From a virus (taxonomy: Duplodnaviria; Caudoviricetes): a DNA stretch of 63,828 nt. The stretch lies in IMG/VR virus record IMGVR_UViG_3300020044_005158, positions 1 through 63,828 of that record, one strand, 5' to 3'. Shown piece after piece: positions 1-17,350 of the stretch (positions are counted from its first letter, which is position 1; every line of letters begins with the position of its first letter). Both the position numbers and the translations under genes were made by a program. Below the pieces are notes generated by a model, which worked only from the letters and a program-made list of their open reading frames with translations, was not told the origin of the DNA and searched no databases.

Positions 1-121
1 AGCATTGACCCTGCGACATACTCTATAAAACTAAACGAGTTAGGAAAGGTATGCAGTAAGAACGAGTGTCCTACATCAACAACTACTACTACAACTACAA
101 CCACTACTACAACTACAACTA
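1..121. repeat. Terminal direct repeat identical to 63708-63828 (circular assembly overlap)
   Basis: First 121 nt match the last 121 nt, and the reading frame continues across the junction. Confidence 0.95.
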
Positions 122-1185
122 CATTGCCTACAGGTGATTACTTTGTGGGTACATCTTGTGTTGATCCAACTGTATCGGCTGTTCTTTTTGATGCGACTAC
201 ATCAGGAGTAATTGTGTCAGATATTGTAAAGACGGATGATGGTAACTGTTGGACAATTACATCTGTTACTACAGCTACATTCCCATACCTATCGATTGAG
301 CATCCAGTAGTTACGTATGCTGACTGCGACACTTGTTTGAGTGTTACTACAACAACTACAACTACAACAACAACTACAGCAACTCCAATAACGGCATTTA
401 GTATTGATGCGGATGCGTTTGTGTCATCATCTCTAGCTTGCGACAATGGTGCTGCTCCTTGGACTACTAGGTATCATAACGGAGCTGGTGCTGTGCCTAC
501 CGTATCAGACTTTGTGTTTACAGATGCTGGTGGAACAACTATATTTAATGGACTGTCAAAGTGGTACAAGGTATCTACTGGGATAGTAGTTCAGATTGGA
601 CTACTTGGTCAGGTGTTGGCTGTAGTAAATTGTTCAGCGACAACTACCACAACTACTACCACACTTCCTACTTGGTTTTATAACTGTACGGCATGTGGCA
701 CTGCTTCTCCATCAGTTATTATTAGCGAACAAACATTATTACAGCTACCGTTAGGAACTGTAGTAAAGGCAGTAAATGGAACATGTTATACAATAAACTC
801 ATACGCTGGATCTGGACCTGCAATATCAACAATTTTGTTTACTTTTGATAACTGTGTTGACTGTCAAGGAATAACTACAACAACTACTACAACCACGACA
901 AGTACAACCACAACAAGTACAACGACTACTACAACCACCACAACTACTGCAGCGCCACTAACTAGGATAATTCTTAGATACGGAACTACTGGAGCATTGT
1001 CTTGTAATGGTACAATATCTGAATACTGGATAGATGGACCAATGGGAGTAGCTGGAAATAATATATATACTAATTCGTCAGGAAGTTCATTGGCTCCATC
1101 AGGATGGTATCAAAAAATATCACAGACAATATCTGAATATTGGGATAGTAAGATCTGGTATGAAGTATCTTACACATGCAGTTAA
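1..1185 (+). CDS. 3' part of tail fibre: Cys-rich modules separated by poly-Thr mucin-like linkers
   Basis: Four Thr tracts, CxxC pairs (DCDTC, NCVDC), repeated YHxG..PxxGD modules. Confidence 0.8.
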   Translation, partial: SIDPATYSIKLNELGKVCSKNECPTSTTTTTTTTTTTTTTTLPTGDYFVGTSCVDPTVSAVLFDATTSGVIVSDIVKTDDGNCWTITSVTTATFPYLSIEHPVVTYADCDTCLSVTTTTTTTTTTTATPITAFSIDADAFVSSSLACDNGAAPWTTRYHNGAGAVPTVSDFVFTDAGGTTIFNGLSKWYKVSTGIVVQIGLLGQVLAVVNCSATTTTTTTTLPTWFYNCTACGTASPSVIISEQTLLQLPLGTVVKAVNGTCYTINSYAGSGPAISTILFTFDNCVDCQGITTTTTTTTTSTTTTSTTTTTTTTTTAAPLTRIILRYGTTGALSCNGTISEYWIDGPMGVAGNNIYTNSSGSSLAPSGWYQKISQTISEYWDSKIWYEVSYTCS

Positions 1186-2093
1186 AATTAATTAGTGCCC
1201 AACCTGCCACTCAGTATTACGCTTGGCAGGTTGAGGTATACCTAACCCAGTTCATTCGACTGGGATACAATCCAGAAGATATTATTGTACTTGGTGGATA
1301 CACGTCAAGCTCTGGAGTTGATAAGTCATGGACGGTGTTAAAACAAGCATTCCCTGACGTGGAAATTCACGTATACGAGTACCATGATTGTGAATACGCA
1401 CCAGCCATGCAGAGTGCAATTTTATATAAACACTTCGAACTGCACCCATACTTATCTGAGTGTGCCTTGTTTTTCCATGATGCAGACTTCTTATTCACAA
1501 AATACTTTGACTTCACTCCATTCCTACAGGACGACATTTGGTACTTCAGTGATACGGTAAGTTACATCGGATCGGAGTATATTAAAAGCAAAGGTTCGGC
1601 AGTACTTGACATGATGTGCCAAACCATAGGAATAAATCGTTCGTTAGTTGAGTCTAACGAGAAGAATTCAGGTGGCGCACAGAAGTTAATGAAGAACGTA
1701 AATAAGGACTACTGGAGGGAGGTAAACTCTCATTCGGTAAATCTATATCAACTACTAAAGAAAGTCGCTCACATCAAGCCAGAAGGGCATAAGTATGGGA
1801 TACAGATATGGACGGCATCAATGTGGGCAGAACTTTGGACTGCATGGAAGCACGGATACCAGACACTATGTCCGAAAGAATTTAATTTTAGTTGGGCTAC
1901 ATGTCATGCTGACAGATGGTACGAGAATGCGTTCTTCCATAATGCAGGGGTGTCAGGTCCGAATAGGGGGATGTTCTTTAAGGCTGACTATATTGACAAG
2001 CTTCCGTATGGCATTGAGCTAGAGCTTTCGGATGACCACTGCTCGAAGAAATACTTTGACTTAGTTCAGTCGGTTGATACTTGTTTAATTTAA
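1176..2093 (+). CDS. Putative GT-A glycosyltransferase, HPAT/SGT1 (GT95/GT96)-like
   Basis: YYAWQ, YAP, HDAD (DxD), WTASMW and HNAG motifs in the order seen in peptide O-glycosyltransferases. Confidence 0.6.
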   Translation: MQLKLISAQPATQYYAWQVEVYLTQFIRLGYNPEDIIVLGGYTSSSGVDKSWTVLKQAFPDVEIHVYEYHDCEYAPAMQSAILYKHFELHPYLSECALFFHDADFLFTKYFDFTPFLQDDIWYFSDTVSYIGSEYIKSKGSAVLDMMCQTIGINRSLVESNEKNSGGAQKLMKNVNKDYWREVNSHSVNLYQLLKKVAHIKPEGHKYGIQIWTASMWAELWTAWKHGYQTLCPKEFNFSWATCHADRWYENAFFHNAGVSGPNRGMFFKADYIDKLPYGIELELSDDHCSKKYFDLVQSVDTCLI

Positions 2094-2094
2094 C

Positions 2095-2102
2095 TATCTT
2101 TG
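2095..2102 (+). promoter_or_regulatory. Bacteroidota -7 promoter box TATCTTTG
   Basis: Matches TAnnTTTG; ATG 5 nt downstream. Confidence 0.7.
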
Positions 2103-2106
2103 CATT

Positions 2107-2853
2107 ATGGCAGATAAGACTATATCATATTCACCTACGGGTAATGGCTGGACCTCTTTTTGGTCCTTTATTCCTGACTGGATGACTGGAATGAATAATA
2201 CATTCTACACATGGAAGGATGGAAGCCTTTACAAGCACGACTCCAATTCTACTAGAAATGCTTTCTATTTTGACTTCATAAATAATGAATACTTTAAGTA
2301 TGACTCTTCTATAACCATGCTATTTAATCAAGATCCGACAATAATGAAGGTGTTTAAGACTATCTCATTGGAGAGTAATGATGTATGGGATTTATCAGCA
2401 ACTACAGACTTAAATACTGGAATAATTGATAGCGAGTGGTTTGTTCAAAAGGAAGGAATGTGGTTTGCATATTTAAGACGTAACTCTGGAGATGCAGACA
2501 ATAGGGCATTATCAACTCAAGGAATTGGGGAGGTTGATTCATACTCTAATCCTGTAATTTCTTTTGACTTTAATATTGGTACATCGATCAGTCAGGGAGA
2601 TGCAATCTACAAGGTAGTTGGTGGCGCACTAATTTTAGTTGGAATGGTAGCCTCACATGACGCTCAGTCCATAACTCTCGTGTCGGAAATCAGCGCACCA
2701 GCATCTTCTGACTTGATCGTGTACGTTAAAGCCAGTCAGGCTGAGAGTTTTGGTGCTCGTGGTGCATGGATGGAGGTAACAATAACTAACAGTTCAGAAG
2801 ACGAGGTAGAGATATTTGAAATCAGTTCAAATGTTTTTAAGTCAAATCCTTAA
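2107..2853 (+). CDS. Tail structural protein resembling the C-terminal part of tail stabilisation/nozzle proteins
   Basis: TISYS..GWTSFWSFIP..NNTFYTWKDGSLYKH and FVQKEGMWF motifs. Confidence 0.6.
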   Translation: MADKTISYSPTGNGWTSFWSFIPDWMTGMNNTFYTWKDGSLYKHDSNSTRNAFYFDFINNEYFKYDSSITMLFNQDPTIMKVFKTISLESNDVWDLSATTDLNTGIIDSEWFVQKEGMWFAYLRRNSGDADNRALSTQGIGEVDSYSNPVISFDFNIGTSISQGDAIYKVVGGALILVGMVASHDAQSITLVSEISAPASSDLIVYVKASQAESFGARGAWMEVTITNSSEDEVEIFEISSNVFKSNP

Positions 2854-2871
2854 TGATAAGGTAAATTTAAC

Positions 2872-2879
2872 TATCTTTG
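2872..2879 (+). promoter_or_regulatory. -7 promoter box TATCTTTG
   Basis: TAnnTTTG upstream of 2896. Confidence 0.7.
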
Positions 2880-2895
2880 CGTTAAAATCATAACT

Positions 2896-3492
2896 ATGTT
2901 CGGACTTATTTCAGCAGGCGTACAAATAGCAGGATTAGGCATGAGCGCTATTCAAGCTATCCAAGAGAATAGACGTATGGCAGAAGCCAAAGCATCTACT
3001 AATGCAGCACTTAATGCTGCCCAACAAGACAAAGAGCAGAACGCATTCGCAGCAACTAGAGCGGCTGACGTTTCAACGAATCAGAAAGAAAAGATAGATC
3101 AAAATATGTCTCGAACTGTTGATACCTTAGCACAGACAGGTGCTGAAGGAGCAATTGGAGGTACTGCTAATGCACTTCAGGCAGCAAATGATGCAAATCT
3201 TCAGGCTACTCAAGCGCAAGGTCAGGCTAACTACGAGCGTGATTTAATGGTGGCAGGAGAGCAGTCTAGGATTAATTCGGATGCTATAAAAAGAAGATTT
3301 GATATCTATGGATTTAAGGCAGGTCAAGGTGCTCAAGATTATACAGATTCGTCATTAGCTTTAACAAATGCTATATCTGGAATGGGAAGTCAAGGAGCTG
3401 GTGCAATAGCAGCATTACAAGCAGATTTCGATCCAGCTACTGGTCAGTATAAGGATAAGGAATGGTATGCAAACAATCCTCCAAAAGCCTAA
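2896..3492 (+). CDS. Internal virion/ejection protein
   Basis: Gly/Ala-rich hydrophobic N-terminus, Ala/Gln-rich helices, position before large ejection genes. Confidence 0.55.
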   Translation: MFGLISAGVQIAGLGMSAIQAIQENRRMAEAKASTNAALNAAQQDKEQNAFAATRAADVSTNQKEKIDQNMSRTVDTLAQTGAEGAIGGTANALQAANDANLQATQAQGQANYERDLMVAGEQSRINSDAIKRRFDIYGFKAGQGAQDYTDSSLALTNAISGMGSQGAGAIAALQADFDPATGQYKDKEWYANNPPKA

Positions 3493-3570
3493 CCCATAAA
3501 AGATAACCGGAAAAATAAATCGATTAACCGGAAATTTCCGGATATAAATAAAAGATTAAAATAATTACTA

Positions 3571-5034
3571 ATGGCAGATAACGCATTTCAAAATATTGAT
3601 TACGGCAGAAGAAGTACTGTTGACTGGGCTAAATTTACAGAGAAGTTATCTGGAGCTATATCTAAGGTAGGAACGGACAGAGAAAAAGCTGTAGAGGAAA
3701 ATGAGAAGATATACTCCGACTCTATAGCTAAACTAAATCAAGCATCAAATCGTGAAGGTCAGTCATTAAATAAATTTGTTATTGATGGAGCTGGTCAAGT
3801 TAAGGAGAAGATGTTAGAGCTGAAGAGAAAGTACTACAATAAGGAGATATCAAATCCTGAATGGAAGGCTATCTCAACAGCATATGTAGAGAATTTCTCA
3901 AACTTAGCAGAGCAAGTTAAGACGGCAGATGATAGATTTAAGTTATACCAAGATAGATCTAAGCCTAATGCTGATGGAGTTATAGAAGGTTCAAATGCTG
4001 AATCTTTCCTAATGAATGAGTACCTTAAGATGGCTGATCTTAATAATAAAAAACTAGTAGCTGGTACTGATGGATCATTGTATATGCAGCAATTAGATGC
4101 TAGTGGAAATCAAATTGGAGAACTAATTAATTACAAAGACTTCTCTCGTCCTGAAAACTTAATAATTAATAAAGTTGACTTACCATCCGCTGTAAATGAT
4201 TTGATAGGAGAATGGGCGACTATAGATAAATGGAAGAATCTTGGTAGAGGAGGAGAAGAGACAAAAACATCTGCTCGTTTTCAGGCAGATTTTGATCTTA
4301 TGAAACTGAATACAGCCGAGGCACTAACATCTAATCCTAGGATGGCTTTAAGTATTCTAGTTGATAATGGTGCAATAAGCTCTCCAGTATATTACACAAG
4401 TGAATCAGAAAAGGATGCCTTGTTAAAAGAAAAGCTTGCTACAGAAGAGGTAAAATATCAAACAGCCAATAAACCTTTTACTGATGATGACAAGAAGAAA
4501 ATTGAGATGTCATTCATTAAGTTTGAAAAGAATCCTAGTACTGGAGTATTCGAACCAGCACTTACTAAGGATCAAATAGATACAGCAAATAAAAGAGTTG
4601 ACCAGCAAATAGAGATTGGATTGGAAACTAAGATAAGCGCTAGTGCACCTCAGGCGTATTCAAGCAGTGGTGGTGGCGGAAGTACTGACGACCAGAAAGT
4701 AGCTATTAACGCATATACGGCATCAGTTGACGCTCTTTCTAAAGGAAATTTTGCAGGATTCGATACTGACAACTATACATTCCAATTGTCTAAAGATAAA
4801 GATGGAAATCCTTATGTTGTAGTTGATTCACTAATAGACGATACTAAAGGAGGACGTAAGCCTGCTAATCAAAAAGTAAGAATATACAGTCCTGATGGAA
4901 TGACTCAGTACTTGAAAAACGTAAAAGGTAATGTTCCTTTGTATCATAAAGGAAAAGATGATTACAAGAAACTTTACGGTGATTACTACTACAAACCGGG
5001 AGGCAGCACAAATATTAATACATCAGGATATTAA
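3571..5034 (+). CDS. Internal virion/ejection protein
   Basis: 487 aa helical protein in the ejection-gene position. Confidence 0.5.
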   Translation: MADNAFQNIDYGRRSTVDWAKFTEKLSGAISKVGTDREKAVEENEKIYSDSIAKLNQASNREGQSLNKFVIDGAGQVKEKMLELKRKYYNKEISNPEWKAISTAYVENFSNLAEQVKTADDRFKLYQDRSKPNADGVIEGSNAESFLMNEYLKMADLNNKKLVAGTDGSLYMQQLDASGNQIGELINYKDFSRPENLIINKVDLPSAVNDLIGEWATIDKWKNLGRGGEETKTSARFQADFDLMKLNTAEALTSNPRMALSILVDNGAISSPVYYTSESEKDALLKEKLATEEVKYQTANKPFTDDDKKKIEMSFIKFEKNPSTGVFEPALTKDQIDTANKRVDQQIEIGLETKISASAPQAYSSSGGGGSTDDQKVAINAYTASVDALSKGNFAGFDTDNYTFQLSKDKDGNPYVVVDSLIDDTKGGRKPANQKVRIYSPDGMTQYLKNVKGNVPLYHKGKDDYKKLYGDYYYKPGGSTNINTSGY

Positions 5035-5043
5035 ATTTAATTT

Positions 5044-8000
5044 ATGAACGAAAAAGCACTTCAAGACTCGTACAACATATTCAAAGCTCAGGGATACAAT
5101 AAATCTATTGAGGAGTATAAGACGTTATTAAAATCTAACGGAAACGCACTGAATGACTCTTATAAATTATTTAAGTCTAAGGGATATAATAAGTCTATTG
5201 ATGACTATAAAGTATTGATGGGAGTAAGTGGTGATCCTGTAAAAAAAAAAGAACCTACGGCATCAGTTTCTCCATCAGGTCAAAAACCTACTTCATCGGT
5301 TACTCCAGCCAAGAAGGCGCAACCGCAATCGGTATTTTTGCAAGACGCAGATACTGGAGGTAAGCTAGAAATACTTACTGGATATCCACAGAAAGAAGAT
5401 ATAGAATATAACTTTGCTAACGGTCAGTGGAGAAAAAGAAAACCCGGTCAAACATCTTGGTACAACATAACTAACGAGGGATCCATAAGTTCTCTTAATA
5501 AGTTCTTTAATAAAGAAAAGATTCCAGATAATAAAAAAAGTGTAGACCAGCAAGTAAGAGACCTTGAGGATTTAAGAGAGCTATCAGACCAAGAAACAGC
5601 TGATGCATTAGGGTGGTCATTAGAAGACCTTCAAAAAGCAAATAAAGGAACAAAGGTAAACAAGGTGAAAACTACAGGTGCTACTGTAGCTCCTAATATT
5701 ATCGAAGGAAAAGATGCTATATCAGTTCAAGCAAATAGCATAGCTAAGGCAAGAATAGAACTTGGCTCATCTGCAAATCAAGAAAAGATAAACGATAGAG
5801 CTAAATATCACGAAAATATAAATCTTCAGAAATATTTAAAGAACAAAGGGTTTGATGTAGATGTAAATGGAGATATCGAAAGTGATAAAACAAAGTCAGC
5901 TCTAGATAAGTTAAAGGCTATAGAAGAACTTAATGAAATAGAAGATGCAAACAGAAGTAAATTCATATCAAAAATAAATAGCGATATAACATCTGACATG
6001 TTATCTTCTCCTGAAAGTATTGATCAATTGAGATCAGAATTTTCTAAGAATGGATATGTATTTGAATCATTTGGTGGATCTATAGCTGGATTAGGAGTTG
6101 GATCTGGTAGGTATATAAAAGTAAAATATACCTTACCTGATGGTACAGAAACAAGAGAAGAGACATTCGATACATCTGATCCAGAAGCCAGTCGTAATAT
6201 GAGACTATTTATGTCTCAAACATTTATGAGTAAATCTGAAAAGGAGGCTATTATTGGAGGTGATGCACCTACTGACGAAATGGGAAGATTTGAGTATATG
6301 TCTTCTCTAGTCGGAAAAATGGCGGCTAATCCTAGTAAGTACGGAAGAACACTTGTATCTGATGAGTTTATTTCTAATCATATGAAAAGTACTTATCAGT
6401 ACTTGAAAGATGAACAAACAGGAATATCATTAGAATATGATAACTTAAAAAAGAGAATAGATCAATTTAAACTTAATCCTACAGAAGAAGAAAGACAGCT
6501 TATTAATAACAAAGTCCATGAAATATCTGTAAGGGAAATTAAGTTAAATGGACAATACGAAAAAGCCAAAGAAACTGAAAAGAATTTTTCTTCAATATCT
6601 GCAGCTTATGCAACTGAAATGGAGAAAAAGGGGGGATTTTTCACTGGATTAACAGCTCAATTTGCTAAGGGTGTTACTAGTATACCAAAAATGATGTTGA
6701 CCACGTCAGCAGATATACTTCCATATGTAGTAGATGCAGTAGATCCTATCACAAAGAATAGATTAAAAAATGATGGGTATTCAGATTCTGAAATAGCAGA
6801 CTATGCCTCAAAGGAACTAAAAAATACGGTTGTTAAAGAGATAGAGAAAGGAGTAGTAAACATAGGATCATTAGGTCAGACTACTGAAGAGTATTTACAG
6901 TCAGAAGATAGAGGTGTTTTAGAAAACACATTAGGATTTTTAGCTAATAGTATTGGGACTGGATTAAGTGGAGGCGGTAATGGCGCATTAACTAAACTTG
7001 CATTTTTTAGTCAGTCATATAATGGCATGTCAGATCAGATGACAGGACCTGAATTTGATAGGTTAACAGAGACAGAAAAGAAACTAATATCTGTACCTTA
7101 CGCATTGGTTATAGGTGGACTTGAAAGACTTGGATTTAAGTTTACAACGAGTACGAGTAAGAATCCTTTATTAAATAAACTAATAAATAATACTATAGCT
7201 AAGACATTTTCTGGCATACCAAAAGATGCATCAATACAAACAATTAATAGAGCTATATCGGAGAGTTTAACAGCTACTATGGCTCAAGCTGGACTAAGAG
7301 TAGTAGGTGGATCTATAGTAGAGGGAGCAGTAGAAGGCTCACAGCAATTAGCTGAGATATCTATAAAGAATATAGCTAACAGAATAATTGGAGAGGATGA
7401 GGATGGATTTGACTTTTTCAAAGATGTACCAGACATAACAACAGCTGAAGGAATTAAGGAAGCGTTAAAATTAGCGTCTGTAGATGCTGCATATGGCGCA
7501 CTAGGGGGTGCTATTATGTCAACTGGAGAAAATGCTGTCTCATCTATTAAAAATTATGGAATTAAGAAAGAACAAGAAAAAGATTTTTTAACGTTAAGAG
7601 CTACCCTTCTTGATGGTAATCTTAGAGCACTTCAAGATTTAGATATAGAAAGAAAATTATCTTATGGAGAGATCACTCAAGAAGAAGCGGATGAGATGAC
7701 CAACTCTATGAATAATGCTACATCAGCATTAGGAAAAATACCTGAGGGATTATCTACATCAAGAGCAAGAGAGTCTTTTGGTCTTTTGATTGAAAGAGAT
7801 AAATTAGAGCAAGAAGTTAAAGGTAAAGACGAAAACCTAGTTGTAGCTCAGAAGGAAAGAATTAAAGAAATTAATAACGAATTACAAACAATAAGCAAAG
7901 ATGCCGTTCAAGAGCAAGCAGCAGGTGAAGTTTCTGTACAGCCAGAAGCCACAACTAGCGAAGAAGTGGTCCAAGGAAAACCCAAATCAGGACCTGAAGT

Positions 8001-11000
8001 CGTTACCGAAGAAGGTAAAAAAGAAGAAGTAGATAAGAAAAAATCAGATAGAATATCAGAAATACAATCTATTTTAGCTAATGATGATGCTAAATTTGCT
8101 GAAGAAGGTCAAAGACCTTTACTGGCAGAGGCACGAGCTGAGTTAACATCTGAATTAGAAGGATTAAACCAAGAATCAACTACTAAAGCAGCTCCAGTTG
8201 CAGAAGTATTTGAATTTAATGGTAAAAAATACGAACTTACTAATGAGTCTGTAACAGATCTTGAAACAGGTAATCTTGTTCCAATTGAACTAGCTACACA
8301 AATTCGTGAAGAAGGAACTGTCGCAACCGAAGCTAACCAAGAACAGGTAGCAACCTTAAGAGCACAAGAGCAAGTAGAACTAGCTGAGGCTATACCTAAC
8401 ATAGACGAATATAAGGTTGATGGGAAGGTAGCCAAAAGTACTATGCCAGCTGATGTTTTGGCTAAGTATGAAGAGATATACGATAGGTATGACAAGCTAA
8501 TAACTCCTTTGTTAACTACTGCACAACCTATCACATCTAAAAATCAAGTCACTCTAGATAACTTCCAAGAATTAGAGAATCAAGCCGTACAGGAAGGAAA
8601 CGATACAAAGATAAAAACGCTTCGTGCTGCAAGAATGGTTGTAAAATCTCTTCCGGGAGTAAAGGTATTCATCCATAACTCACCTGAGGAGTACCAGCAG
8701 GCGTTAGCAGATGCATCTGGTGATTCCATTGATACTATCAAGTCAGAAGAAGCATCAGAGCGTTCATCCGGACAGTATGTAAATGGTGAGATACACGTTG
8801 ATGGAAGTATTGCAACAGAGCGTACAGTATACCATGAGGCATTCCATGATGCAATCCTAAAATCAGGACTGTCAGTAGAGATGGCTAAAGGGCTTCTTAA
8901 GATTATTTCAGACAAGAAAATCAAGTCTCAACTAGAGGCATTCATTAGTCAGTATGAGTCTAGTGAGCAGAATGAAGAAATGGTTGTTGAGCTTGGAGCT
9001 ATCATGGCTGAAGCAGGGACTGAATTGTCTACTACTAAACTTCAGCAGTTTAAGCAGTTAATAAATAAGTTAGCACAGAAGTTAGGACTTCCTGTAATGC
9101 TTCCAGCGTCAGCGGATCGTCAGCAGGTTGTTGACTTTATTAATACCATGTCGAAAGCAATTCGTACTGGACGTGCTGTTGATCTGAATATAAAAGGAGC
9201 AAAAGACAAGACAGGTATTACTGAAGAAATAAATCCAACTGCACCTGACACTGGTACAGGTGTTGATACATCATCATTAGAGAATAGAAAAAAATCTTTA
9301 ATACAAAACCTTGGGTTAGTAAGACAAAAAGAAATAACTCAAAGATTAAAGACTGGAATAAAATTATCAGATTTAGGAAGAGTAATATCTCACTTAACAT
9401 TCTCAGATAGACTTGTTACTGGAAAAGTTGGAGATAAAGATTATCTTGGAGGTATATTATTTGCAGCTGCAACTAATAGAGTATGGGCATCATTCTCTAA
9501 AGGAAGAGTTAGTTCTATAATAAATGGAATGCCTGTCAATAAGGATGGATATAGATATCTAATGCCAGCATTACTCACTGAACAATCTCACATGTCGAAT
9601 AAGGACATGATGAATACATCTCTTAAATTAGTAGAAGATGCTGTAATAAATGGAGATGTAGATTTTAACTCTGCTAACGACAGAATAAGAAAAGCATTAA
9701 ACAGAAAAGGACTAGAGAAGTATCTTGAAATATATAACAAATCTATTGGTGATAATATAACAGCTAAAAGTGTAAAGAATGCTATAGATGAGGCTATTGT
9801 AAATAGCGATAGTACATTTGAAAATAGAAAAACATTCTTAGAGGCATTACTTGGAAAGGCTGATATAGATCTAACTAAAAGATTTGGGAATCTTCCATCA
9901 TTTTCTGAATTAGCAAATGGACTTGCTGAACCAATAACAGAAGGACATGAATATGGTGATATACTTTTAGTTATAAGAACTAAGGGTAATCTTATTGCTG
10001 TTCAACCAAAAGAAGGAGATGCAGATTACCATCCATCTTATCCTTGGGTCATCAGATCAGTAGATGAAAATGGAGATATTTCTGATGTTGAAACATTAAT
10101 ATTTGATAAATCTTACAATGCTATAAATGTATTTCCTAAGGTAACAAATAAGATTGGTAAAACATTATCATACCAAGATTATGTTAACAAGTATGGAGAT
10201 AAAGCAAAATCAGCATATCTTGGATACATAGGAGGTAGATCAACTATGTCTACATCTTTGACTGAAGAAGTAAATATTGAAGCTGAACAAAAAGAAAAAG
10301 TAGCTGAAGTTTTTAAAGGCAGAAAGAAAAGAATGACTGAGCCAGTTGCTGGAAATAAATTATTCAATGAGCCACTTAGAGACGCGTCAGTTATTGCTAA
10401 AAAGTATTCAGAAAAGTCTGGAATAGAGTATGTTACTGTAGAAAAGATATCAAAGCTAGACGAGTCTAACTCTAAAGAAATTGCTGCTGAATATGATAAG
10501 ATGAAGAACGATCCTACCAATCCAGAGGTTAGGAAAGCATATGATGCAATGATAAAAGAGACTGCTGATCAGTATGAAGCAATACTGGATGGCGGTTATG
10601 TTGTTGAGGTTAATAATAATGAGCCATACTCTAGCTCTGAGGATATGATACAAGACCTTCGTGATAACAAGCGAATGAAAATATTCTCTACTGAATCTGG
10701 ATTTGGGGATGATCCAATTACTGACGAGCAAAGAGCAGAGAATCCATTACTACAAAAAACAAAGTACTCAGATGTAAATGGAATTCCATTACTAGCTAAT
10801 GATTTATTTAGATTTGTACATGACTTCTTTGGTCACGCAAAATTAGGAAATGGATTCGGACCTATTGGAGAGGAGAATGCATGGAGAGTTCATTCTGTTA
10901 TGTATTCAGATTTAGCTAGAAGAGCTATGACATCTGAGACTAGAGGTCAAAATAGTTGGGTTAATTTTAGTGGAGCAAATGACGCTGTATTTAAATTAAG

Positions 11001-14000
11001 AGATAAGGCTAGAGCTCTTCGTAAGGAAGGAAAGATAGATGAGGCAAATGAGTTGATTGGTCAAGTATATGACGAGATGCAGTTTGCTGAACAGAAGGTT
11101 GGACTTATGCCTGAGTGGGTGTCAGAGACTGCACCTCGTAAAAAGCAAAAGTCTGGTGGAAAGAAAGTAACTGCCCAAAAAGTAAATCAGTCGTTTAAGA
11201 ATCCTGTAAAGAAGGTGATTGTGAATGACCGTACTGCCTTAAGAAATCAACTAAGACTTGAGGCTAGGGCTGCTCGTGAGTCACAAATGGACTTAAAGCA
11301 GAAACAACGTGCATTAATTGTGGCTATCAATAAGATGAAGCGAGGTGGACTTATTACGGTAAATCAGGCATCTATACTTGCTAAAAGACTAGCGTTCGTT
11401 AATGTAGACAATCCAATAATGATCGAGAGATTTTTAGGATACGCTGATAAGTTATTTGCAGATGCTGAATATTCAGCTAAACTTAATTCTGCATTTGAGC
11501 TACAAAAAAAGATAAAGAGAGCTATAAAATCTGATAAGCTTCAAGCAAGTGTTGTAGCTACAGCGAAAGCATTTTCTAAATTGAATCCATCATTAGTTGA
11601 GGATATTGATACATACATTGAGAATGCTGAAAAGGTAATGAACGCAGTTAAGTCGTCTCGTGCAAACGTAAAAGATGGTGTAGATTTAGATAATATTATT
11701 AAAGGCAAAAAGGCAGATATTGCTATTGAATTAAAGACTGCAATGGACTTTAATGAGATTGGTGAGTACACAGATAAAGCTATTGAGTTAGAGAATGAGT
11801 ATAGAAAGAATGAACTAATGTCTATCTACAAGGACTTATCTGATGCAAATATTATCACTAAAGAAATGTCTATCGAAGAGATGAAGGAAGTGATTACGTC
11901 AGTTATGAATGAATCTAAGGATAAAATGCCAGCAGAAGAAAAGCTTGCATACATTATGTCTTGGCTTGGAAGTACTGCAAATGTATACCGTCCAATCATT
12001 AAATCAATGCTTAATGGACGAGATCCGTTTACAGGTGATGATGTAGTTCTTTCTGAGAAGCAGGATCAAATAATTCGTAACTTCCTAAAAATAGATGTCA
12101 CTAAGATGGATGTTCGTGAGGCAATGTTTGTAGTTGAGGCTATGGATAATTTCATTACAAATAAAATCACTGATGGACTTGAGACTGTAATAGCTAAATA
12201 TGAAGGAAACTTAGAAGCTAAGAAATTATCTGATTCAGGATTCAAGACTAGATCCATGAATACATTTGGAAATGAAAAGTCTAAGTTAGGTACTGGTAGG
12301 TTATGGGCGCAAGAGATGATGTCATTAAAGACATTGACTGACTTGGTATTTAGAGGTGTAAATAACGCTCAGAAAATAACTAAGGCAATGGGTCTTTCTG
12401 CATACGAGAATGGAGTAGCACTTGCAAATAGATTATGGAACAACAGCATTGATTCATACTATAACGAGTTCAAGAAGACAAAACCGAATGGAGAAAAGTT
12501 TATGTCAGCAAAAAATATATACGAAAGAGGTATGTATGCTGCACTTAAAAGAACTATTCCGGGAGATCAGAAAGTACAAGATGCTGAATTAAAAAGAAAG
12601 ATTAAGCTAATCAACGACAGTATTTCCACATTGATGAAAGGATCTGAAAGAGATCAAGATATTGCAAAGATGTACTCTGAGGTTGCTGAAAAACTTGGAA
12701 TAAACGAGTCTGGAGTTACAATGCTGGATATAGAGTCAAGAGTTGATTCAAACAATATGAAGGCTGTAGACTGGTGGGTTAGTAAATGGGCTGATAACTA
12801 TAGCGAACTAGCTGATGTAAGTCAGAACGTTTACAATACAATCCTTGATAGAGATATGTACTACACACCTGATAAGTTTTCTAGCACAAAGCCAGTAGAG
12901 AAGTCAGTAGAAGAAGTATTTGAATCAGGAGGTGCATTCGGACAGTTTTTAGATTATGAGTACGACAAGAAATCTGGTGTATTAATGCCTTCAGCAAAAC
13001 AATCATCAATGGCTGAAGGAAGATTCTTGGACCTTAATTTCGATATGAATAACTCAAAATCTTTGAAGGCTGCATTGGTTGACATGAAGACGGCTACATC
13101 CATTCGTAAAATCAGCGGATTCTTAAAGTCAAAGGACTGGGAGAAAGTGATGACGGCAAAAGAAGATAGAGATGTATTCAGAAAGAAGATTGATAACTAC
13201 ATACTTCGAAGCAGAAATAAATCAACTGGTGCAATCGATAATGATTACGCACAGGCATTAGATAAGGCTGGTAAGATTTGGGCATCAATGGGAGCTGCTA
13301 GAGCATTAGGTGGATTTACTCAGCCATTAAAGCAAACGATTCCAGTATTAATGAGTACAATCATTAACTCAGGAAGAGTTGATTTTGCTATAGGTAAGGA
13401 TCAGAATGATTGGATTAGTAAAATAGGTAGAGGGATATCAAACAGAGGGCTTGAATCTCAGGCTGGATTTGAGGATGCAAATAGAATGATGGATGATGCA
13501 GCAAATAGTGGTAACGCTGTAAAGATATTGGCTGCAATAGAAAAATCTAATAGGTTTGTTTTAAGAGCAGTTCTTGCGAAGCCTGACGTATTTATAGCTA
13601 GATCATCTTTCATATCTTACTACAAGCAGTATATGGCTAATAATGGGATGTCTGAGGATATTAATTACTCAAAGCCAGAAGATGCAAATCAAGATGCATT
13701 GGATTATGCTCAACGAATGATTGATCGTCAGCAGAACGTATCTGATGGAGATTTAGCTGGTGAATTTATGTCATCTAATAAACCATATAAAAAATTAGCT
13801 AAAAATATATTATTACCATTTGCTTCATTTGTGATTAATCAGAAGTCAAGAATGTTTACTGATTTCGCAACACTTATGGGTAAGGAGGTATCAAGTCAAG
13901 ATAGAGTATTAGCTATTAGATCATTAAGTGGATTAGCCGCTGAAATTGCTGTATTTAACGCTATAGCATTTGGTATAAAGGCAGGTGTAATTGCAATAGC

Positions 14001-14850
14001 TGGAGAAATAGTACCTCCAGCTCCAGAAGATGAAAAAGAAAAAGAAAAAGAATTATGGAAGCAGTGGGGGTATATTATTGGAAACGTAATTGCAAGTATT
14101 ATTTCTCCAGTTCCATTTACAGATAGTTCTGTAATATCATCTTCTGACTGGGTATATAAGCAGGTAAATAAAATTGCCAAAAGCTCTAGTGGTGAGACGA
14201 AAGAGGCTCTTAAGAAGCATAATGAGGAGAGAGAGTTAAATGGTCAGAGACCACTTGTAGGTAGAGAGGCTGATAGATGGATGGAGAATCATCAGGAAGA
14301 AGATCGATTTAAGATTCGTGCGTATACTAATGAAAACATGGCTGGTACGTATACCATTACATATAATAAATTAGTTGAACTTAAGAAATCATATAACCTA
14401 GCATTCAATGGTGAGTACGAGCAAGATATGTATGGTAAGGTCCAGAAGAAGTATATTCTAAAGGAAGATAGAGACGTTCTTAAATACATGTGGATTGGAA
14501 ATGCAATAACTAATATTGCAGGATTCCCGTCAGAGTATAGCTCTGTAAATAGAAGAGTTGAGAATAACGTCAAGAAGAAGAGTGCAATTTCAGAAAAGAA
14601 ATTTGATACATACAATGATGTTGTTAGCCACAAAGGAGGAGAATTAAATAAGGCAGAATTGTTCTTGGTAAAGAACATGGATGGAACTAAGTCTCAAAGT
14701 GGAACTGATCGTGTAATTGAAGAGATCGAGTGGATTAAAGAGAATGGAGGATTTGATAATGAACGTCAGATGGACAAGTACATTGAAATATATCAAAAGG
14801 AGAAGTCAGTTAGTTCGTCTGACATGTATGAGATTAAAAAAATAAAGTAA
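5044..14850 (+). CDS. Giant polyvalent virion/ejection protein (3268 aa) with zincin-like HExxH domain
   Basis: YHEAFH..EEMVVE motif; HDFFGH..GEENAW..SETRGQ domain; PG-binding-like LQKYL..GF..NG..T segment; tandem N-terminal repeat. Confidence 0.75.
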   Translation: MNEKALQDSYNIFKAQGYNKSIEEYKTLLKSNGNALNDSYKLFKSKGYNKSIDDYKVLMGVSGDPVKKKEPTASVSPSGQKPTSSVTPAKKAQPQSVFLQDADTGGKLEILTGYPQKEDIEYNFANGQWRKRKPGQTSWYNITNEGSISSLNKFFNKEKIPDNKKSVDQQVRDLEDLRELSDQETADALGWSLEDLQKANKGTKVNKVKTTGATVAPNIIEGKDAISVQANSIAKARIELGSSANQEKINDRAKYHENINLQKYLKNKGFDVDVNGDIESDKTKSALDKLKAIEELNEIEDANRSKFISKINSDITSDMLSSPESIDQLRSEFSKNGYVFESFGGSIAGLGVGSGRYIKVKYTLPDGTETREETFDTSDPEASRNMRLFMSQTFMSKSEKEAIIGGDAPTDEMGRFEYMSSLVGKMAANPSKYGRTLVSDEFISNHMKSTYQYLKDEQTGISLEYDNLKKRIDQFKLNPTEEERQLINNKVHEISVREIKLNGQYEKAKETEKNFSSISAAYATEMEKKGGFFTGLTAQFAKGVTSIPKMMLTTSADILPYVVDAVDPITKNRLKNDGYSDSEIADYASKELKNTVVKEIEKGVVNIGSLGQTTEEYLQSEDRGVLENTLGFLANSIGTGLSGGGNGALTKLAFFSQSYNGMSDQMTGPEFDRLTETEKKLISVPYALVIGGLERLGFKFTTSTSKNPLLNKLINNTIAKTFSGIPKDASIQTINRAISESLTATMAQAGLRVVGGSIVEGAVEGSQQLAEISIKNIANRIIGEDEDGFDFFKDVPDITTAEGIKEALKLASVDAAYGALGGAIMSTGENAVSSIKNYGIKKEQEKDFLTLRATLLDGNLRALQDLDIERKLSYGEITQEEADEMTNSMNNATSALGKIPEGLSTSRARESFGLLIERDKLEQEVKGKDENLVVAQKERIKEINNELQTISKDAVQEQAAGEVSVQPEATTSEEVVQGKPKSGPEVVTEEGKKEEVDKKKSDRISEIQSILANDDAKFAEEGQRPLLAEARAELTSELEGLNQESTTKAAPVAEVFEFNGKKYELTNESVTDLETGNLVPIELATQIREEGTVATEANQEQVATLRAQEQVELAEAIPNIDEYKVDGKVAKSTMPADVLAKYEEIYDRYDKLITPLLTTAQPITSKNQVTLDNFQELENQAVQEGNDTKIKTLRAARMVVKSLPGVKVFIHNSPEEYQQALADASGDSIDTIKSEEASERSSGQYVNGEIHVDGSIATERTVYHEAFHDAILKSGLSVEMAKGLLKIISDKKIKSQLEAFISQYESSEQNEEMVVELGAIMAEAGTELSTTKLQQFKQLINKLAQKLGLPVMLPASADRQQVVDFINTMSKAIRTGRAVDLNIKGAKDKTGITEEINPTAPDTGTGVDTSSLENRKKSLIQNLGLVRQKEITQRLKTGIKLSDLGRVISHLTFSDRLVTGKVGDKDYLGGILFAAATNRVWASFSKGRVSSIINGMPVNKDGYRYLMPALLTEQSHMSNKDMMNTSLKLVEDAVINGDVDFNSANDRIRKALNRKGLEKYLEIYNKSIGDNITAKSVKNAIDEAIVNSDSTFENRKTFLEALLGKADIDLTKRFGNLPSFSELANGLAEPITEGHEYGDILLVIRTKGNLIAVQPKEGDADYHPSYPWVIRSVDENGDISDVETLIFDKSYNAINVFPKVTNKIGKTLSYQDYVNKYGDKAKSAYLGYIGGRSTMSTSLTEEVNIEAEQKEKVAEVFKGRKKRMTEPVAGNKLFNEPLRDASVIAKKYSEKSGIEYVTVEKISKLDESNSKEIAAEYDKMKNDPTNPEVRKAYDAMIKETADQYEAILDGGYVVEVNNNEPYSSSEDMIQDLRDNKRMKIFSTESGFGDDPITDEQRAENPLLQKTKYSDVNGIPLLANDLFRFVHDFFGHAKLGNGFGPIGEENAWRVHSVMYSDLARRAMTSETRGQNSWVNFSGANDAVFKLRDKARALRKEGKIDEANELIGQVYDEMQFAEQKVGLMPEWVSETAPRKKQKSGGKKVTAQKVNQSFKNPVKKVIVNDRTALRNQLRLEARAARESQMDLKQKQRALIVAINKMKRGGLITVNQASILAKRLAFVNVDNPIMIERFLGYADKLFADAEYSAKLNSAFELQKKIKRAIKSDKLQASVVATAKAFSKLNPSLVEDIDTYIENAEKVMNAVKSSRANVKDGVDLDNIIKGKKADIAIELKTAMDFNEIGEYTDKAIELENEYRKNELMSIYKDLSDANIITKEMSIEEMKEVITSVMNESKDKMPAEEKLAYIMSWLGSTANVYRPIIKSMLNGRDPFTGDDVVLSEKQDQIIRNFLKIDVTKMDVREAMFVVEAMDNFITNKITDGLETVIAKYEGNLEAKKLSDSGFKTRSMNTFGNEKSKLGTGRLWAQEMMSLKTLTDLVFRGVNNAQKITKAMGLSAYENGVALANRLWNNSIDSYYNEFKKTKPNGEKFMSAKNIYERGMYAALKRTIPGDQKVQDAELKRKIKLINDSISTLMKGSERDQDIAKMYSEVAEKLGINESGVTMLDIESRVDSNNMKAVDWWVSKWADNYSELADVSQNVYNTILDRDMYYTPDKFSSTKPVEKSVEEVFESGGAFGQFLDYEYDKKSGVLMPSAKQSSMAEGRFLDLNFDMNNSKSLKAALVDMKTATSIRKISGFLKSKDWEKVMTAKEDRDVFRKKIDNYILRSRNKSTGAIDNDYAQALDKAGKIWASMGAARALGGFTQPLKQTIPVLMSTIINSGRVDFAIGKDQNDWISKIGRGISNRGLESQAGFEDANRMMDDAANSGNAVKILAAIEKSNRFVLRAVLAKPDVFIARSSFISYYKQYMANNGMSEDINYSKPEDANQDALDYAQRMIDRQQNVSDGDLAGEFMSSNKPYKKLAKNILLPFASFVINQKSRMFTDFATLMGKEVSSQDRVLAIRSLSGLAAEIAVFNAIAFGIKAGVIAIAGEIVPPAPEDEKEKEKELWKQWGYIIGNVIASIISPVPFTDSSVISSSDWVYKQVNKIAKSSSGETKEALKKHNEERELNGQRPLVGREADRWMENHQEEDRFKIRAYTNENMAGTYTITYNKLVELKKSYNLAFNGEYEQDMYGKVQKKYILKEDRDVLKYMWIGNAITNIAGFPSEYSSVNRRVENNVKKKSAISEKKFDTYNDVVSHKGGELNKAELFLVKNMDGTKSQSGTDRVIEEIEWIKENGGFDNERQMDKYIEIYQKEKSVSSSDMYEIKKIK
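7901..8032 (+). CDS. Nested small basic protein MPFKSKQQVKFLYSQKPQLAKKW... (43 aa), +1 frame inside the giant gene
   Basis: ATG after A-rich leader, TAG at 8030-8032; resembles the widespread phage MPFKS..Q..L....P..A..W small proteins. Confidence 0.7.
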   Translation: MPFKSKQQVKFLYSQKPQLAKKWSKENPNQDLKSLPKKVKKKK

Positions 14851-14852
14851 AG

Positions 14853-14882
14853 AAAAAGCCCCGATCGAAACCGGGGCTTTCT
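14853..14882. terminator. Intrinsic terminator between the convergent arms
   Basis: AAAAAGCCCCG..CGGGGCTTT hairpin with A and T flanks. Confidence 0.75.
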
Positions 14883-14885
14883 ATT

Positions 14886-14976
14886 CCTTAAGTATGTAAT
14901 GTTCGGATTATATCTCGTCATTCTAATCAGATTCTTTTCTTAACCAAGCGCTTGGTGCCTGAACCGATACTTAAGG
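14886..14976. ncRNA. Candidate multi-branch structured RNA
   Basis: CCTTAAGTAT/ATACTTAAGG closing stem enclosing further hairpins. Confidence 0.35.
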
Positions 14977-14980
14977 CGTG

Positions 14981-15106
14981 TTAATTATACTTAAAGTCTA
15001 TAGTTACGCATAACCATGATACATAACAGTAGTGAGTAGCCTTAAAATCCCAATTTGGAAGTAGTAGCCATTCTGTAGGATGAATATTAATTTGTCGTAA
15101 TTTCAT
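14981..15106 (-). CDS. Small hypothetical protein (41 aa, MKLRQINIHP...)
   Basis: Manual translation; AT-rich leader. Confidence 0.5.
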   Translation of the reverse strand: MKLRQINIHPTEWLLLPNWDFKATHYCYVSWLCVTIDFKYN

Positions 15107-15128
15107 TGTATTTTATTTATCTGATTAC

Positions 15129-16259
15129 TTAAAATATATGTGTTAATCTAGCTACCTGACCGTGCTCCTTATGAAACACAAATCCCTCAATAGCTACAGG
15201 TGACCATTGATAACCTTGGCGGTGGTGCCAGCTGTCTGTACCACTTGGAGAACGCAGAGTCTCAACGTTTACAGACATGTAATCCTTACTACTCTTGTGA
15301 TGTATGTGATGTCCAAACACAAATCGGTGCTTACAGTGATGCCAGTGTTCAGAGGCTTCGTGAGCCATAAGCATTGGAAGGTCTGTAACCTTGGCGCCAT
15401 CCATGTGAGTAGTTCCGATTAGGTTCTTACCATAAACGGAATACTTTCTGTGAGACATATCTGTGTTGAAACTAACGTTCTTACTTTCACGGAACCAGCT
15501 CTTAACTGAGTCAATCATCATGAATCCAGACATGTAGTCATGATTTGATGGGTTATATACAACCTCAACGTCAGCTATTGTCATCAGTGTTTCAATGATT
15601 TCAACAATTAGTTTCTTAGCAATGACGAAGTTATCGTACCACATTCCGTCCGTGTCTTGAGGGGTTCCACTAGTTGTGGTCCTTCTAGGTGTGTCGGTAT
15701 GTAGTACATCATTTCCAGCAACAAAGATAACCTTGTCAATATTCCATCCGTTAGACTTCTGAATAATTCCATGAAGACCTTCACGAACTCGTTTAACAGC
15801 TATCTGTTGGTTGTAGTCCTCTCCAGTCTCAAATGAGCTGCAAAGTTTCCCAATATGGATATCTGCAGGATCAAATAATAAACAGTGACCGTCCTTAATT
15901 GGCTTGCGTTCAATCGTCACGTATTTAGGACTCCATTTAGATATCTCTTCAATCAGGTTATCACGGAAGTCTTCATACCTGAACTCGTTACTGTCTCCCT
16001 TAACCTTTAAACTGAAGTGCTTGCTCTTGTGCCAGTACGCATCAACCTTTGACGGATCGATACCAACTCTTTCACACTCAGCAATTAGAGCTGGGTCATG
16101 TTTTTTAGCCTCTACCTTTAGTATGCAACGGCTTGTGGCATGTCTAACTGCATTGTACTCTAACGATAACTCCTCAGATATGATCCTAGCCATGGCAGAC
16201 TTATTGGTCATGCCAGAAGCATACAGCTCTAAGGCTCGTTTTTTAACTTCTTTATTCAT
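15129..16259 (-). CDS. Calcineurin-like metallophosphoesterase with N-terminal HTH-like region
   Basis: DIHIGK, GND, NHD, THMD and GHHIHH motifs. Confidence 0.8.
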   Translation of the reverse strand: MNKEVKKRALELYASGMTNKSAMARIISEELSLEYNAVRHATSRCILKVEAKKHDPALIAECERVGIDPSKVDAYWHKSKHFSLKVKGDSNEFRYEDFRDNLIEEISKWSPKYVTIERKPIKDGHCLLFDPADIHIGKLCSSFETGEDYNQQIAVKRVREGLHGIIQKSNGWNIDKVIFVAGNDVLHTDTPRRTTTSGTPQDTDGMWYDNFVIAKKLIVEIIETLMTIADVEVVYNPSNHDYMSGFMMIDSVKSWFRESKNVSFNTDMSHRKYSVYGKNLIGTTHMDGAKVTDLPMLMAHEASEHWHHCKHRFVFGHHIHHKSSKDYMSVNVETLRSPSGTDSWHHRQGYQWSPVAIEGFVFHKEHGQVARLTHIF

Positions 16260-16455
16260 CCTTGATTGATTTTCGAATGTCCAGTAGGACCTTATTCAAT
16301 TTCTTAATTGCTGTCTCCACCTCGTCCTGACTTCCATCAGATAGTGCCTCATACAGCTCACGATTATATTCGTCAATCTCATCCATAGTTGAGTTGACCC
16401 ATTGTATATTTCGAATCATGCTCGCAAAGCTAAGACATTGATTACTAATATCCAA
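16252..16455 (-). CDS. Hypothetical protein
   Basis: Operon-packed ORF. Confidence 0.5.
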   Translation of the reverse strand: MDISNQCLSFASMIRNIQWVNSTMDEIDEYNRELYEALSDGSQDEVETAIKKLNKVLLDIRKSIKDE

Positions 16456-16461
16456 ATAAAA

Positions 16462-16890
16462 TTACAGTTGGTCTATGAATTTATCTAACTGTAAGACAAG
16501 TTTTCTACCATATCTTTTGCTTCTTTCGATTGGAATGTATATATTTTCGATAGTTCTTAACTCATAGTCCAAGTAGTATATACCTTCTTTTGAGTTATTA
16601 ACGTACTTAGATTTTGGATACATCCCTTTATCAATCCACTCAAACAAAAACTTGTTTACCTCCTTCATGCAGTCCTTTCTAGGTGTGCACTTTAGGTAGT
16701 TGTATACGGTAGACCGTTCGACATGTATGATCTTAGCTATACTTGGAATTGATGCCCCTTGACTTTCTAGTTGTACCACTACCTGACGTCGCATCTCTGA
16801 CACCCAGTCGCCAAATCGTACACGATATAGCGGCTTGAAGTATTCATGAATTTTTACGATTTGATTTTCTGTTAACTGCTCCATTGACAT
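16462..16890 (-). CDS. HTH DNA-binding protein
   Basis: SIPSIAKIIHVERSTVYNYL helix-turn-helix. Confidence 0.6.
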   Translation of the reverse strand: MSMEQLTENQIVKIHEYFKPLYRVRFGDWVSEMRRQVVVQLESQGASIPSIAKIIHVERSTVYNYLKCTPRKDCMKEVNKFLFEWIDKGMYPKSKYVNNSKEGIYYLDYELRTIENIYIPIERSKRYGRKLVLQLDKFIDQL

Positions 16891-17123
16891 TTACTTGAAA
16901 AATTTAAATTACTTACTTTATATACGAGTCTGTATCTCGACATCTCTCTATCCTTGAACATTCTATTTACTGACTTAATAAACATATCATGGTGCACGTC
17001 CTTATCATCAATCAGTACTACTGGGTATCTGGTTAGTAACTTATGTATTGGATGAAGCCTTGACTTACTGTTTAATGGGATTAGTTTAATATCAATGTCT
17101 GCTATGTATACCGAGGCGTTCAT
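16872..17123 (-). CDS. Hypothetical protein
   Basis: Overlapping start/stop in operon. Confidence 0.5.
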   Translation of the reverse strand: MNASVYIADIDIKLIPLNSKSRLHPIHKLLTRYPVVLIDDKDVHHDMFIKSVNRMFKDREMSRYRLVYKVSNLNFSSKCQWSS

Positions 17124-17350
17124 AGCTTCTTAAATACAATATTACATTCGTGCAGGTGTTCAGCCAGACGACCTAGGTTAGCCTCACGCATTGGCTGAAA
17201 CTCGGCATCAAGAACTACTGCATGTTTGATGATTAGTTCGTTGTTACTTACTGAATATACGTCAATCAGGATGTTATGCATCTTTGGTACCTTCAGGTCA
17301 AACATCTCAGCTAGTAGCTGTACGTTAGGATTGGCTAGTGTTGCTTTCAT
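17120..17350 (-). CDS. Hypothetical protein
   Basis: Overlapping start/stop in operon. Confidence 0.5.
   Translation of the reverse strand: MKATLANPNVQLLAEMFDLKVPKMHNILIDVYSVSNNELIIKHAVVLDAEFQPMREANLGRLAEHLHECNIVFKKL

Follow-up and report, generated by a model that had tools for sequence, protein, structure and literature searches.

The window analysed here, the whole 63,828-nucleotide (nt) IMG/VR virus record IMGVR_UViG_3300020044_005158 (Duplodnaviria; Caudoviricetes), is a circular phage genome. Its two ends share 121 identical nucleotides, and IMG/VR classes the record as bearing direct terminal repeats and as 100% complete. Across the junction lie two plus-strand genes. The first encodes a poly-threonine (poly-Thr) 'beads-on-a-string' protein; its 5' part occupies 62019..63707 and its 3' part continues at position 1 and runs to 1185 (63708-63828 repeat 1-121). 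The second, at 1176..2093, encodes a 305-residue protein of family phrog_4417, a putative Thr O-glycosyltransferase with a predicted glycosyltransferase A (GT-A) fold. The enzyme ATG at 1176 precedes the TAA stop of the Thr-run gene (1183-1185), which gives an overlap of 10 nt, and an earlier sequence-only reading of this DNA was right in stating that the second gene overlaps the stop of the first.

The joined Thr-run gene comprises 2874 nt, corresponding to 957 codons plus TAA, and contains no internal stop. Contig L004, which is 97% related, carries the gene uninterrupted and with the identical set of four tracts, so the joined reading is not an artefact of assembly. The protein contains 147 Thr among its 957 residues and 24 cysteines (Cys). 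In its last 370 residues, four Thr runs part five small modules, which alternate between two types (B-A-B-A-B), and the 3' part of the gene reads B1(end)-T1-A1-T2-B2-T3-A2-T4-B3. Tract 1 has 17 residues including one serine (Ser) (residues 588-604, positions 73..123) and is conserved in 24 of 24 homologues. Tract 2 has 11 residues (679-689, 346..378), tract 3 has 8 (777-784, 640..663), and tract 4 has 25 including two Ser (855-879, 874..948); all four lie on the plus strand. Thr codons are mixed (tract 4 uses ACA 10, ACT 7, ACC 4 and ACG 2 times), and we thus recover the four runs with varied codons, joining Cys-bearing modules, that had been described from the letters. The module Cys are invariant across the 24 homologues. 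The B-type module matches phrog_21885, the 62019..63707 part has weak PHROG matches to phrog_14478, phrog_13374 and phrog_21885, and a search of PDB sequences with both halves of the appendage returned nothing under E 0.04. In the whole genome a pattern of eight Thr codons matches in this gene only, and a control pattern gave 0 matches.

We compared the tracts across the homologues and find that the residue is retained while its codons are not. In 41 tract columns from 24 homologues, 943 of 977 cells are Thr (96.5%), 33 are Ser and 1 is another residue. Each tract column contains a mean of 3.76 distinct Thr codons, and synonymous change is saturated. Outside the tracts the appendage has diverged: 20 of the 23 homologues retain 34-55% identity to the window protein, and the three closest 69-93%. 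Thr identity in the tracts is under strong purifying selection, and the earlier claim that selection acts on the protein is borne out by these counts. In a linker that served only as a flexible spacer, Gly, Pro, Ala and Asn would all be acceptable; because Thr is retained where such a spacer would admit these residues, the alignment indicates that the hydroxy-amino acid itself matters. We also considered that the runs are slippage-prone DNA repeats under mutation pressure. We rejected this, as the codons are mixed and the residue is conserved while the codons are not. Tandem Repeats Finder (TRF) detected in the Thr-run DNA only imperfect periods of 3-27 nt with 68-90% matches.

The two genes are flanked by the two parts of a muzzle (tail-tip) protein, also on the plus strand. 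Upstream, 58125..62015 encodes its N-terminal part (1296 residues), which matches crAss_MUZ PF25731 (E 4e-12, 45.5 bits against a Pfam cut-off of 27) and phrog_14478 (E 2.5e-183); the ATG of the Thr-run gene at 62019 lies 3 nt past its stop. Downstream, 2107..2853 encodes the 248-residue C-terminal part, which matches crAss_MUZ_C PF25729 (E 5.5e-14, 52.8 bits against a cut-off of 27). Relatives have a single muzzle gene, and in Flavobacterium phage elemoF the muzzle is one uninterrupted 1493-residue protein. Residues 1-1177 of the N-terminal part correspond to residues 1-1238 of the elemoF muzzle (BLASTP E 4e-63 and 2e-41), and residues 7-246 of the C-terminal part to its residues 1262-1491 (BLASTP E 4e-30). 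Because the flanking genes cover the elemoF muzzle and the Thr-run protein has no counterpart there (no significant BLASTP match to the elemoF muzzle, E 0.15), the Thr-run gene and the enzyme gene read as an insert of ∼3.8 kilobases (kb) that splits the muzzle gene. The gene is encoded inside a split muzzle gene, so the former label 'tail fibre' was a guess, and 'muzzle-attached appendage' suits the data better. We collected relatives from GenBank with the N-terminal part of the muzzle, as the 248-residue C-terminal part used as query gave 5 related loci only. The 87 tblastn records all come from phages of Flavobacterium, Cellulophaga, Tenacibaculum or Maribacter, except one uncultured podovirus. 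Since the muzzle relatives nearly all infect such genera, an aquatic member of the Flavobacteriia is a plausible host and a fair guess, in line with the Bacteroidota host proposed earlier.

The product of 1176..2093 matches phrog_4417, a family of unknown function, with E 2.5e-59. It finds no Pfam family at E ≤ 1, Glyco_transf_8 (PF01501) included, and none of the four proteins searched against NCBIfam, the enzyme among them, gave a match. We obtained an AlphaFold (AF2) model from a 71-sequence alignment with a predicted local distance difference test score (pLDDT) of 97.5 and a predicted template modelling score (pTM) of 0.93. The top PDB matches of this model in Foldseek are all GT-A glycosyltransferases (WbbM, XXYLT1, UGGT, LgtC, glycogenin, GlyE and GT6), many of them with probability 1.00, and the model shows a single-domain, Rossmann-like fold of that class. 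When residues 1-305 were aligned with VIA-align, the highest score was found with glycogenin (3rmw; Z 14.8, root mean square deviation 3.3 over 216 aligned residues), followed by the Skp1 alpha-galactosyltransferase (Z 14.2), LgtC (13.9) and UGGT (13.8); identity in these structural alignments is only 8-12%. The closest solved folds belong to families GT8, GT24 and GT6. In BFVD, uncharacterised phage proteins are the nearest models, and viral GT8-like enzymes come next. Sequence and family-profile searches of the PDB found no solved glycosyltransferase. By its predicted fold the enzyme is a GT-A glycosyltransferase, as had been claimed for the downstream open reading frame (ORF).

All motifs named in the sequence-only reading (YYAWQ, YAP, HDAD, WTASMW and H) are present in the enzyme, and they fall on conserved columns (W17, Q18, Y74, D102, D104, W212, M216, W217, H255). 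In the 71-sequence alignment, Asp-104, His-255 and Lys-269 are invariant, and Asp-102 and Gln-169 are at least 90% conserved. The DxD motif Asp-102-Ala-Asp-104 (1479..1487, plus strand) comes straight after the fourth strand of the model (residues 97-101) and forms the predicted metal and nucleotide-sugar site. His-255 (1938..1940, plus strand), found in 71 of 71 sequences, is a candidate third metal ligand and the putative equivalent of the histidine metal ligand of GT8 enzymes. The protein has neither a signal peptide nor a membrane anchor, and its model opens with a strand at residues 3-10. From the model we infer a soluble, metal-dependent enzyme of the retaining, GT8-like type. Its likeness to GT8 enzymes such as glycogenin, the Skp1 alpha-galactosyltransferase, LgtC and GlyE extends over the full length of the fold (Z 13.8-14.8) and includes the DxD after the fourth strand and the conserved late His; it differs from them in having no Pfam Glyco_transf_8 hit and in insertions peculiar to the family, such as helices 177-197 and 211-225. 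Several GT8-type enzymes act on protein acceptors, and GlyE, among the fold relatives here, comes from the pneumococcal serine-rich-repeat adhesin pathway.

Residues 139-171 of the enzyme (1590-1688), with the consensus ...LLxxMCxxVGIxxxxVxxNxxNSGGAQ.L, form a 31-33-residue stretch that resembles one repeat of a transcription activator-like (TAL) effector (LLPVLCQAHGLTPEQVVAIASNSGGKQAL). We rejected kinship to TAL effectors: the hits sum weak repeats, none of which is significant singly (best whole-chain E 3.9e-6, family profile). The resemblance is probably due to chance or to a shared helix-loop-helix.

The earlier reading had proposed the co-occurrence of this glycosyltransferase with poly-Thr across phage genomes as a check, and we tested it at the level of loci. 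We counted as a Thr run any stretch of 7 or more Thr or Ser residues that includes at least 6 Thr, and looked for it up to 3 kb upstream on the strand of the gene. IMG/VR yielded 80 loci with a family member, and in 79 of them the sequence extends 600 nt or more upstream of the gene. A Thr run lies within 3 kb upstream in 62 of these 79, and in a further 3 the run is in the gene that follows; among other 3-kb windows of the same loci only 13 of 269 contain a run (Fisher p 1e-39). Grouping the enzymes at 70% identity leaves 33 clusters, of which 26 are positive. The Thr-bearing partners fall into at least 14 families without detectable similarity once the runs are masked. The enzyme and the runs are also absent together: none of the seven whole genomes that share the muzzle and have no family member (elemoF, elemoA, phi38:1, Calle_1, Panino, Gundel_1 and MW202828) contains a run of 7 or 8 Thr codons.

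Sampled GenBank phages behave in the same way, with 10 of 10 having Thr runs within 3 kb of the family gene: Chryseobacterium phage MA9V-3, Enterococcus phages phiFL1A and Planchet, Lactococcus phages 1706 and bIL285, Lacticaseibacillus phage R9.1, Lactobacillus phage iLp84, Clostridium phage FA88, Arcanobacterium phage TPWB06 and Staphylococcus phage PMBT8. The runs are mostly found at the extreme C termini of major capsid or major tail proteins, or in tiny Thr-repeat ORFs. Taken together, these counts support a statistical and phylogenetic tie between the gene and poly-Thr tracts on virion proteins. The pairing could reflect inherited synteny in a few phage lineages with no functional link, and 33 of the 80 IMG/VR loci do belong to close kin of the window phage whose partner gene is the same. 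We nevertheless regard this as highly improbable: most clusters stay positive after de-replication, the partners belong to many unrelated families, and the positions of the runs differ, being internal linkers here and C-terminal tails of capsid and tail-tube proteins in Firmicutes phages. In addition, two unrelated contigs that were picked for their Thr runs and have the enzyme (G016 and G025) again carry the family gene directly downstream of the run.

Several individual loci deserve description. In Lactococcus phage 1706 (L003), a 686-residue ORF annotated 'head maturation protease' (2468-4525) and the major tail protein (5235-5972) both end in a run of 9-10 Thr followed by an identical HHD tail, and the family gene, orf14, comes after the tail protein; the 686-residue ORF is probably a protease-capsid fusion. 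Small ORFs stand directly upstream of the family gene in iLp84 (L092, 2608-2994), TPWB06 (L095, 2660-2923) and PMBT8 (L097, 2606-2938), and they consist largely of repeated blocks of 6-12 Thr parted by VKP, QP or AP. In TPWB06 the end of the major tail protein gene is overlapped by the small ORF, an arrangement that suggests a frameshift extension.

We consider it likely that 62019..1185 and 1176-2093 constitute a two-gene virion O-glycosylation cassette, in which a GT8-like transferase decorates the Thr linkers of a muzzle-attached appendage. The cassette would have been inserted into the muzzle gene of a podophage of Flavobacteriia. Its first gene would supply a virion appendage with a globular N-terminal part, followed by five Cys-bearing modules on four poly-Thr linkers, and its second gene a cytoplasmic GT-A enzyme of the soluble, metal-dependent, retaining type described above. 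This enzyme would add sugar from a host nucleotide sugar to Thr hydroxyls before or during assembly. Each glycosylated linker would then become a mucin-like, extended, stiff and protease-resistant glycopeptide stalk. The scheme builds on the predicted fold, the conserved catalytic-type residues, the tight coupling of the two genes, their recurrent pairing with poly-Thr virion proteins and the purifying selection on Thr; its acceptor, sugar donor, anomeric result and advantage for the phage are inferred.

A number of results weigh against this cassette reading. An adjacent Thr run is absent at 14 of the 79 IMG/VR loci. When whole contigs of such loci were searched, 6 of 10 show no run, all six of them only 4-69% complete; in favour of the pairing, genuine poly-Thr proteins are encoded at other sites in each of the four contigs of at least 90% completeness. 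For the converse test we drew random viral contigs no shorter than 30 kb that contain 12 or more Thr in one in-frame run. Only 5 of the 21 searched have a family member, and 3 of these 5 belong to kin of the window phage. Among the 21, three contigs are at least 90% complete, and two of these three lack the family. The rule runs one way: the enzyme implies Thr runs, but a Thr run does not imply the enzyme. In bacteria, 7 of 20 genome loci (found with a narrower alignment, which reaches closer relatives only) hold fused members with no Thr run within 5 kb, so the acceptor of the family is not always poly-Thr. By sequence we found no link to a characterised peptide glycosyltransferase above a curated threshold. 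Pfam identified no other glycosyltransferase or sugar-nucleotide gene in the 48 of 73 window ORFs that were scanned, and any glycan must therefore use host donors. Finally, our literature search found no paper that reports a measured glycan for any member of phrog_4417.

Some contigs of these two sets carry features of interest. L075, one of the six contigs with no Thr run, has a 113-residue frame (8874-9212) upstream of the family member that contains at least 20 Ser instead of Thr. Where the run does not adjoin the family gene (L099-L106, G001-G004), two kinds of Thr-run protein are encoded elsewhere: a small kind of ∼100-130 residues with blocks of 7-10 Thr at the end (...TTTTTTTTTTAP), and a large, fibre-like kind with up to 15 Thr runs. 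L121 (IMG/VR, 56 kb, 17% complete) contains an ORF with 101 uninterrupted Thr on a contig with no family member. Among Thr-run contigs without the family, 3 of 5 encode a GT2 enzyme (G020 (L147), G024 (L164) and G011 (L108)) and 0 of 5 a Pfam GT8; in G024, ∼4 kb separate the GT2 gene from the run. In these three contigs the Thr runs may be served by other families of transferase. The presence of GT2 genes there proves little, because such genes are common.

The results that speak against the cassette bear on a different explanation, in which the enzyme targets phage DNA, other residues of virion proteins or an envelope polymer of the host (to mask receptors or exclude superinfection), and the Thr runs are unmodified spacers that merely share a structural module with it. 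It would account for the 16 of 21 Thr-run viral contigs without this glycosyltransferase and for the bacterial fused homologues without nearby runs, and the fold neighbours of the enzyme include the polysaccharide and lipopolysaccharide enzymes WbbM and LgtC. Phage glycosyltransferases for DNA and for serotype conversion are moreover described as well known in a published account (PMC12619734). We consider this explanation unlikely, however, as the gene stands in late structural operons right behind the gene with the Thr runs, its partners come from at least 14 unrelated families, the enzyme and the runs are jointly absent from 7 of 7 relatives, a Thr retention of 96.5% is unexpected for a plain spacer, and the enzyme has no signal peptide or membrane anchor.

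The family to which the enzyme belongs is large and uncharacterised. Clustering at 90% identity gives 365 proteins, with no name or Pfam domain among the 120 listed, and clustering at 50% gives 766 representatives (E ≤ 0.001). A second recognised glycosyltransferase domain (GT2, GT6, GT7C, GT25, GT29 or GT32-like) is fused to the family domain in 21 of 146 relatives scanned; one further relative has a radical SAM/SPASM and one a methyltransferase fusion. These fusions, together with the context of the fused member in Chitinophaga silvisoli, which resembles a locus for a ribosomally synthesised and post-translationally modified peptide (RiPP), point to a family that builds glycans on peptides. 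Glycocins and other RiPPs are a class with peptide glycosyltransferase loci, and the C. silvisoli member shares with them a peptide-modifying context. It differs from the phage system in that its core peptide contains Ser and Cys, has no Thr run and is not a virion protein, whereas the proposed phage acceptor is a set of virion Thr runs. The cluster itself (L239, 684-9614) is a candidate glycosylated bacteriocin locus and encodes, in order, a 57-residue GG-motif peptide, a radical SAM enzyme, a C39-peptidase ABC exporter, the family glycosyltransferase fused to a GT7C-like domain, a LanC-like protein, a DUF3405 protein and a Core-2/I-branching glycosyltransferase.

The same fusions raise the question of whether the family domain starts a glycan or extends one. 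The Thr runs could be glycosylated chiefly by a host or other route, with the phage protein acting as an extending or editing accessory or as a catalytically silent assembly factor that binds Thr runs. Fusion to a second transferase domain in 21 of 146 relatives suggests multi-step glycans that the family domain need not prime, and GT2 enzymes are encoded by 3 of the 5 Thr-run contigs without the family. We hold such a role to be very unlikely: the enzyme is the sole glycosyltransferase that Pfam recognises among the scanned ORFs of the window, and the invariant or nearly invariant DxD and His argue for catalysis. We know of no cytoplasmic pathway for poly-Thr O-glycosylation in Flavobacteriia.

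The sequence-only reading had placed the enzyme close to the plant and algal families GT95 and GT96, a label for which support is weak. In its favour, PF23452 (HPAT) is the sole Pfam family touched outside fused domains. It is matched by 1 of 158 relatives (P0161), colinearly (9-242 to 9-230 of 307) and with 21.9 bits against a cut-off of 23.9. In the ESM-Atlas, PF23452 is found in 10% of the members of the nearest clusters, and DUF7164 is another neighbour. Against it, the window protein has no hit to PF23452 at all, and the closest folds are those of GT8, GT24 and GT6. A search of the window genome with PF23452 found nothing either, but as it also found nothing in 14 control genomes it says little. 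These matches weakly suggest a distant kinship to GT95, which we treat as a lead and not as membership. GT95 enzymes are Golgi type-II membrane proteins that act on hydroxyproline (Hyp). The plant and algal enzymes and the phage enzyme would be alike in adding sugars to hydroxy-amino acid runs of extended, structural proteins. They differ in that the phage enzyme has no N-terminal anchor and would act in the bacterial cytoplasm, and in that its proposed acceptor is Thr and not Hyp or Ser. A published fold survey predicts a GT-A-like fold for GT95 and, for GT96, which there has no crystal structure, a novel fold (PMC8476585).

The surroundings of the cassette are consistent with one transcript, since promoter- and terminator-like sites in 1-5200 are not above chance: we count 14 promoter-like sites where shuffles give 16 ± 4, and 5 terminator-like sites where they give 2.0 ± 1.7. 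The sole terminator-like site close to a gene boundary (2150-2166) lies within the gene 3' of the enzyme gene. Directly after the structural genes, a 3268-residue ORF (5044-14850, plus strand) has no Pfam match at E ≤ 1e-4; in elemoF the corresponding giant gene carries the annotation of a structural protein (DUF3293). Farther away, 37224-38807 (plus strand) encodes a full-length chaperonin of the Cpn60/GroEL type (PF00118, E 1.4e-47).

Virion glycosylation in mycobacteriophages was reportedly described by Freeman et al. in Cell Host Microbe in 2023, and to our knowledge glycosylated phage particles have been measured in mycobacteriophages only. Two published accounts state that particles of Che8, Corndog and Myrna are glycosylated, with glycans at the C termini of capsid and tail-tube proteins (PMC12619734, PMC12363180). 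In PMC12014285 glycosylation is mentioned for animal viruses only, and our literature search found no paper that describes the phrog_4417 family or links phage poly-Thr runs to a glycosyltransferase. The mycobacteriophages and the phages of this family are alike in that phage-encoded glycosyltransferases modify the phage's own particle proteins, which for the present family is a proposal, and the Thr runs of the Firmicutes phages lie at the very capsid and tail-tube C termini reported to bear mycobacteriophage glycans. The enzyme families differ. The family profile, which did find its positive controls, matched nothing in the Che8 genome at E ≤ 10, and no Mycobacterium phage occurs among the 75 tblastn records of the family. 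The capsid and tail-tube proteins of Che8 end in ...KTGS and ...SDGS and have no Thr run, whereas the proposed acceptor in the window is a set of pure Thr runs internal to a muzzle-attached protein of a Bacteroidota podophage.

We tentatively extend the argument beyond this genome, with doubt slightly outweighing belief. Poly-Thr and the enzyme may form a portable 'glyco-tag', in which a short Thr run is grafted on any exposed virion protein and the co-travelling enzyme turns it into a mucin-like brush. The tag would span phages of Bacteroidota, Bacillota and Actinomycetota, with capsid, tail tube, muzzle, fibres and decoration mini-proteins as its carriers, and its enzyme would share ancestry with HPAT and RiPP glycosyltransferases. 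If this holds, it would be a second route to glycosylated particles, far more widespread than that of the mycobacteriophages, and many other phages would sugar-coat exposed parts of their particles by means of a simple, recognisable tag. The family is present in long-studied dairy and enterococcal phages (Lactococcus phages 1706 and bIL285, and phiFL1A), and phrog_4417, a large family of 'hypothetical proteins', would gain an annotation. The pair would also offer a compact combination of enzyme and tag for making mucin-like glycopeptides in bacteria, and such a coat would bear on phage stability, on host recognition and on recognition by antibodies in phage therapy.

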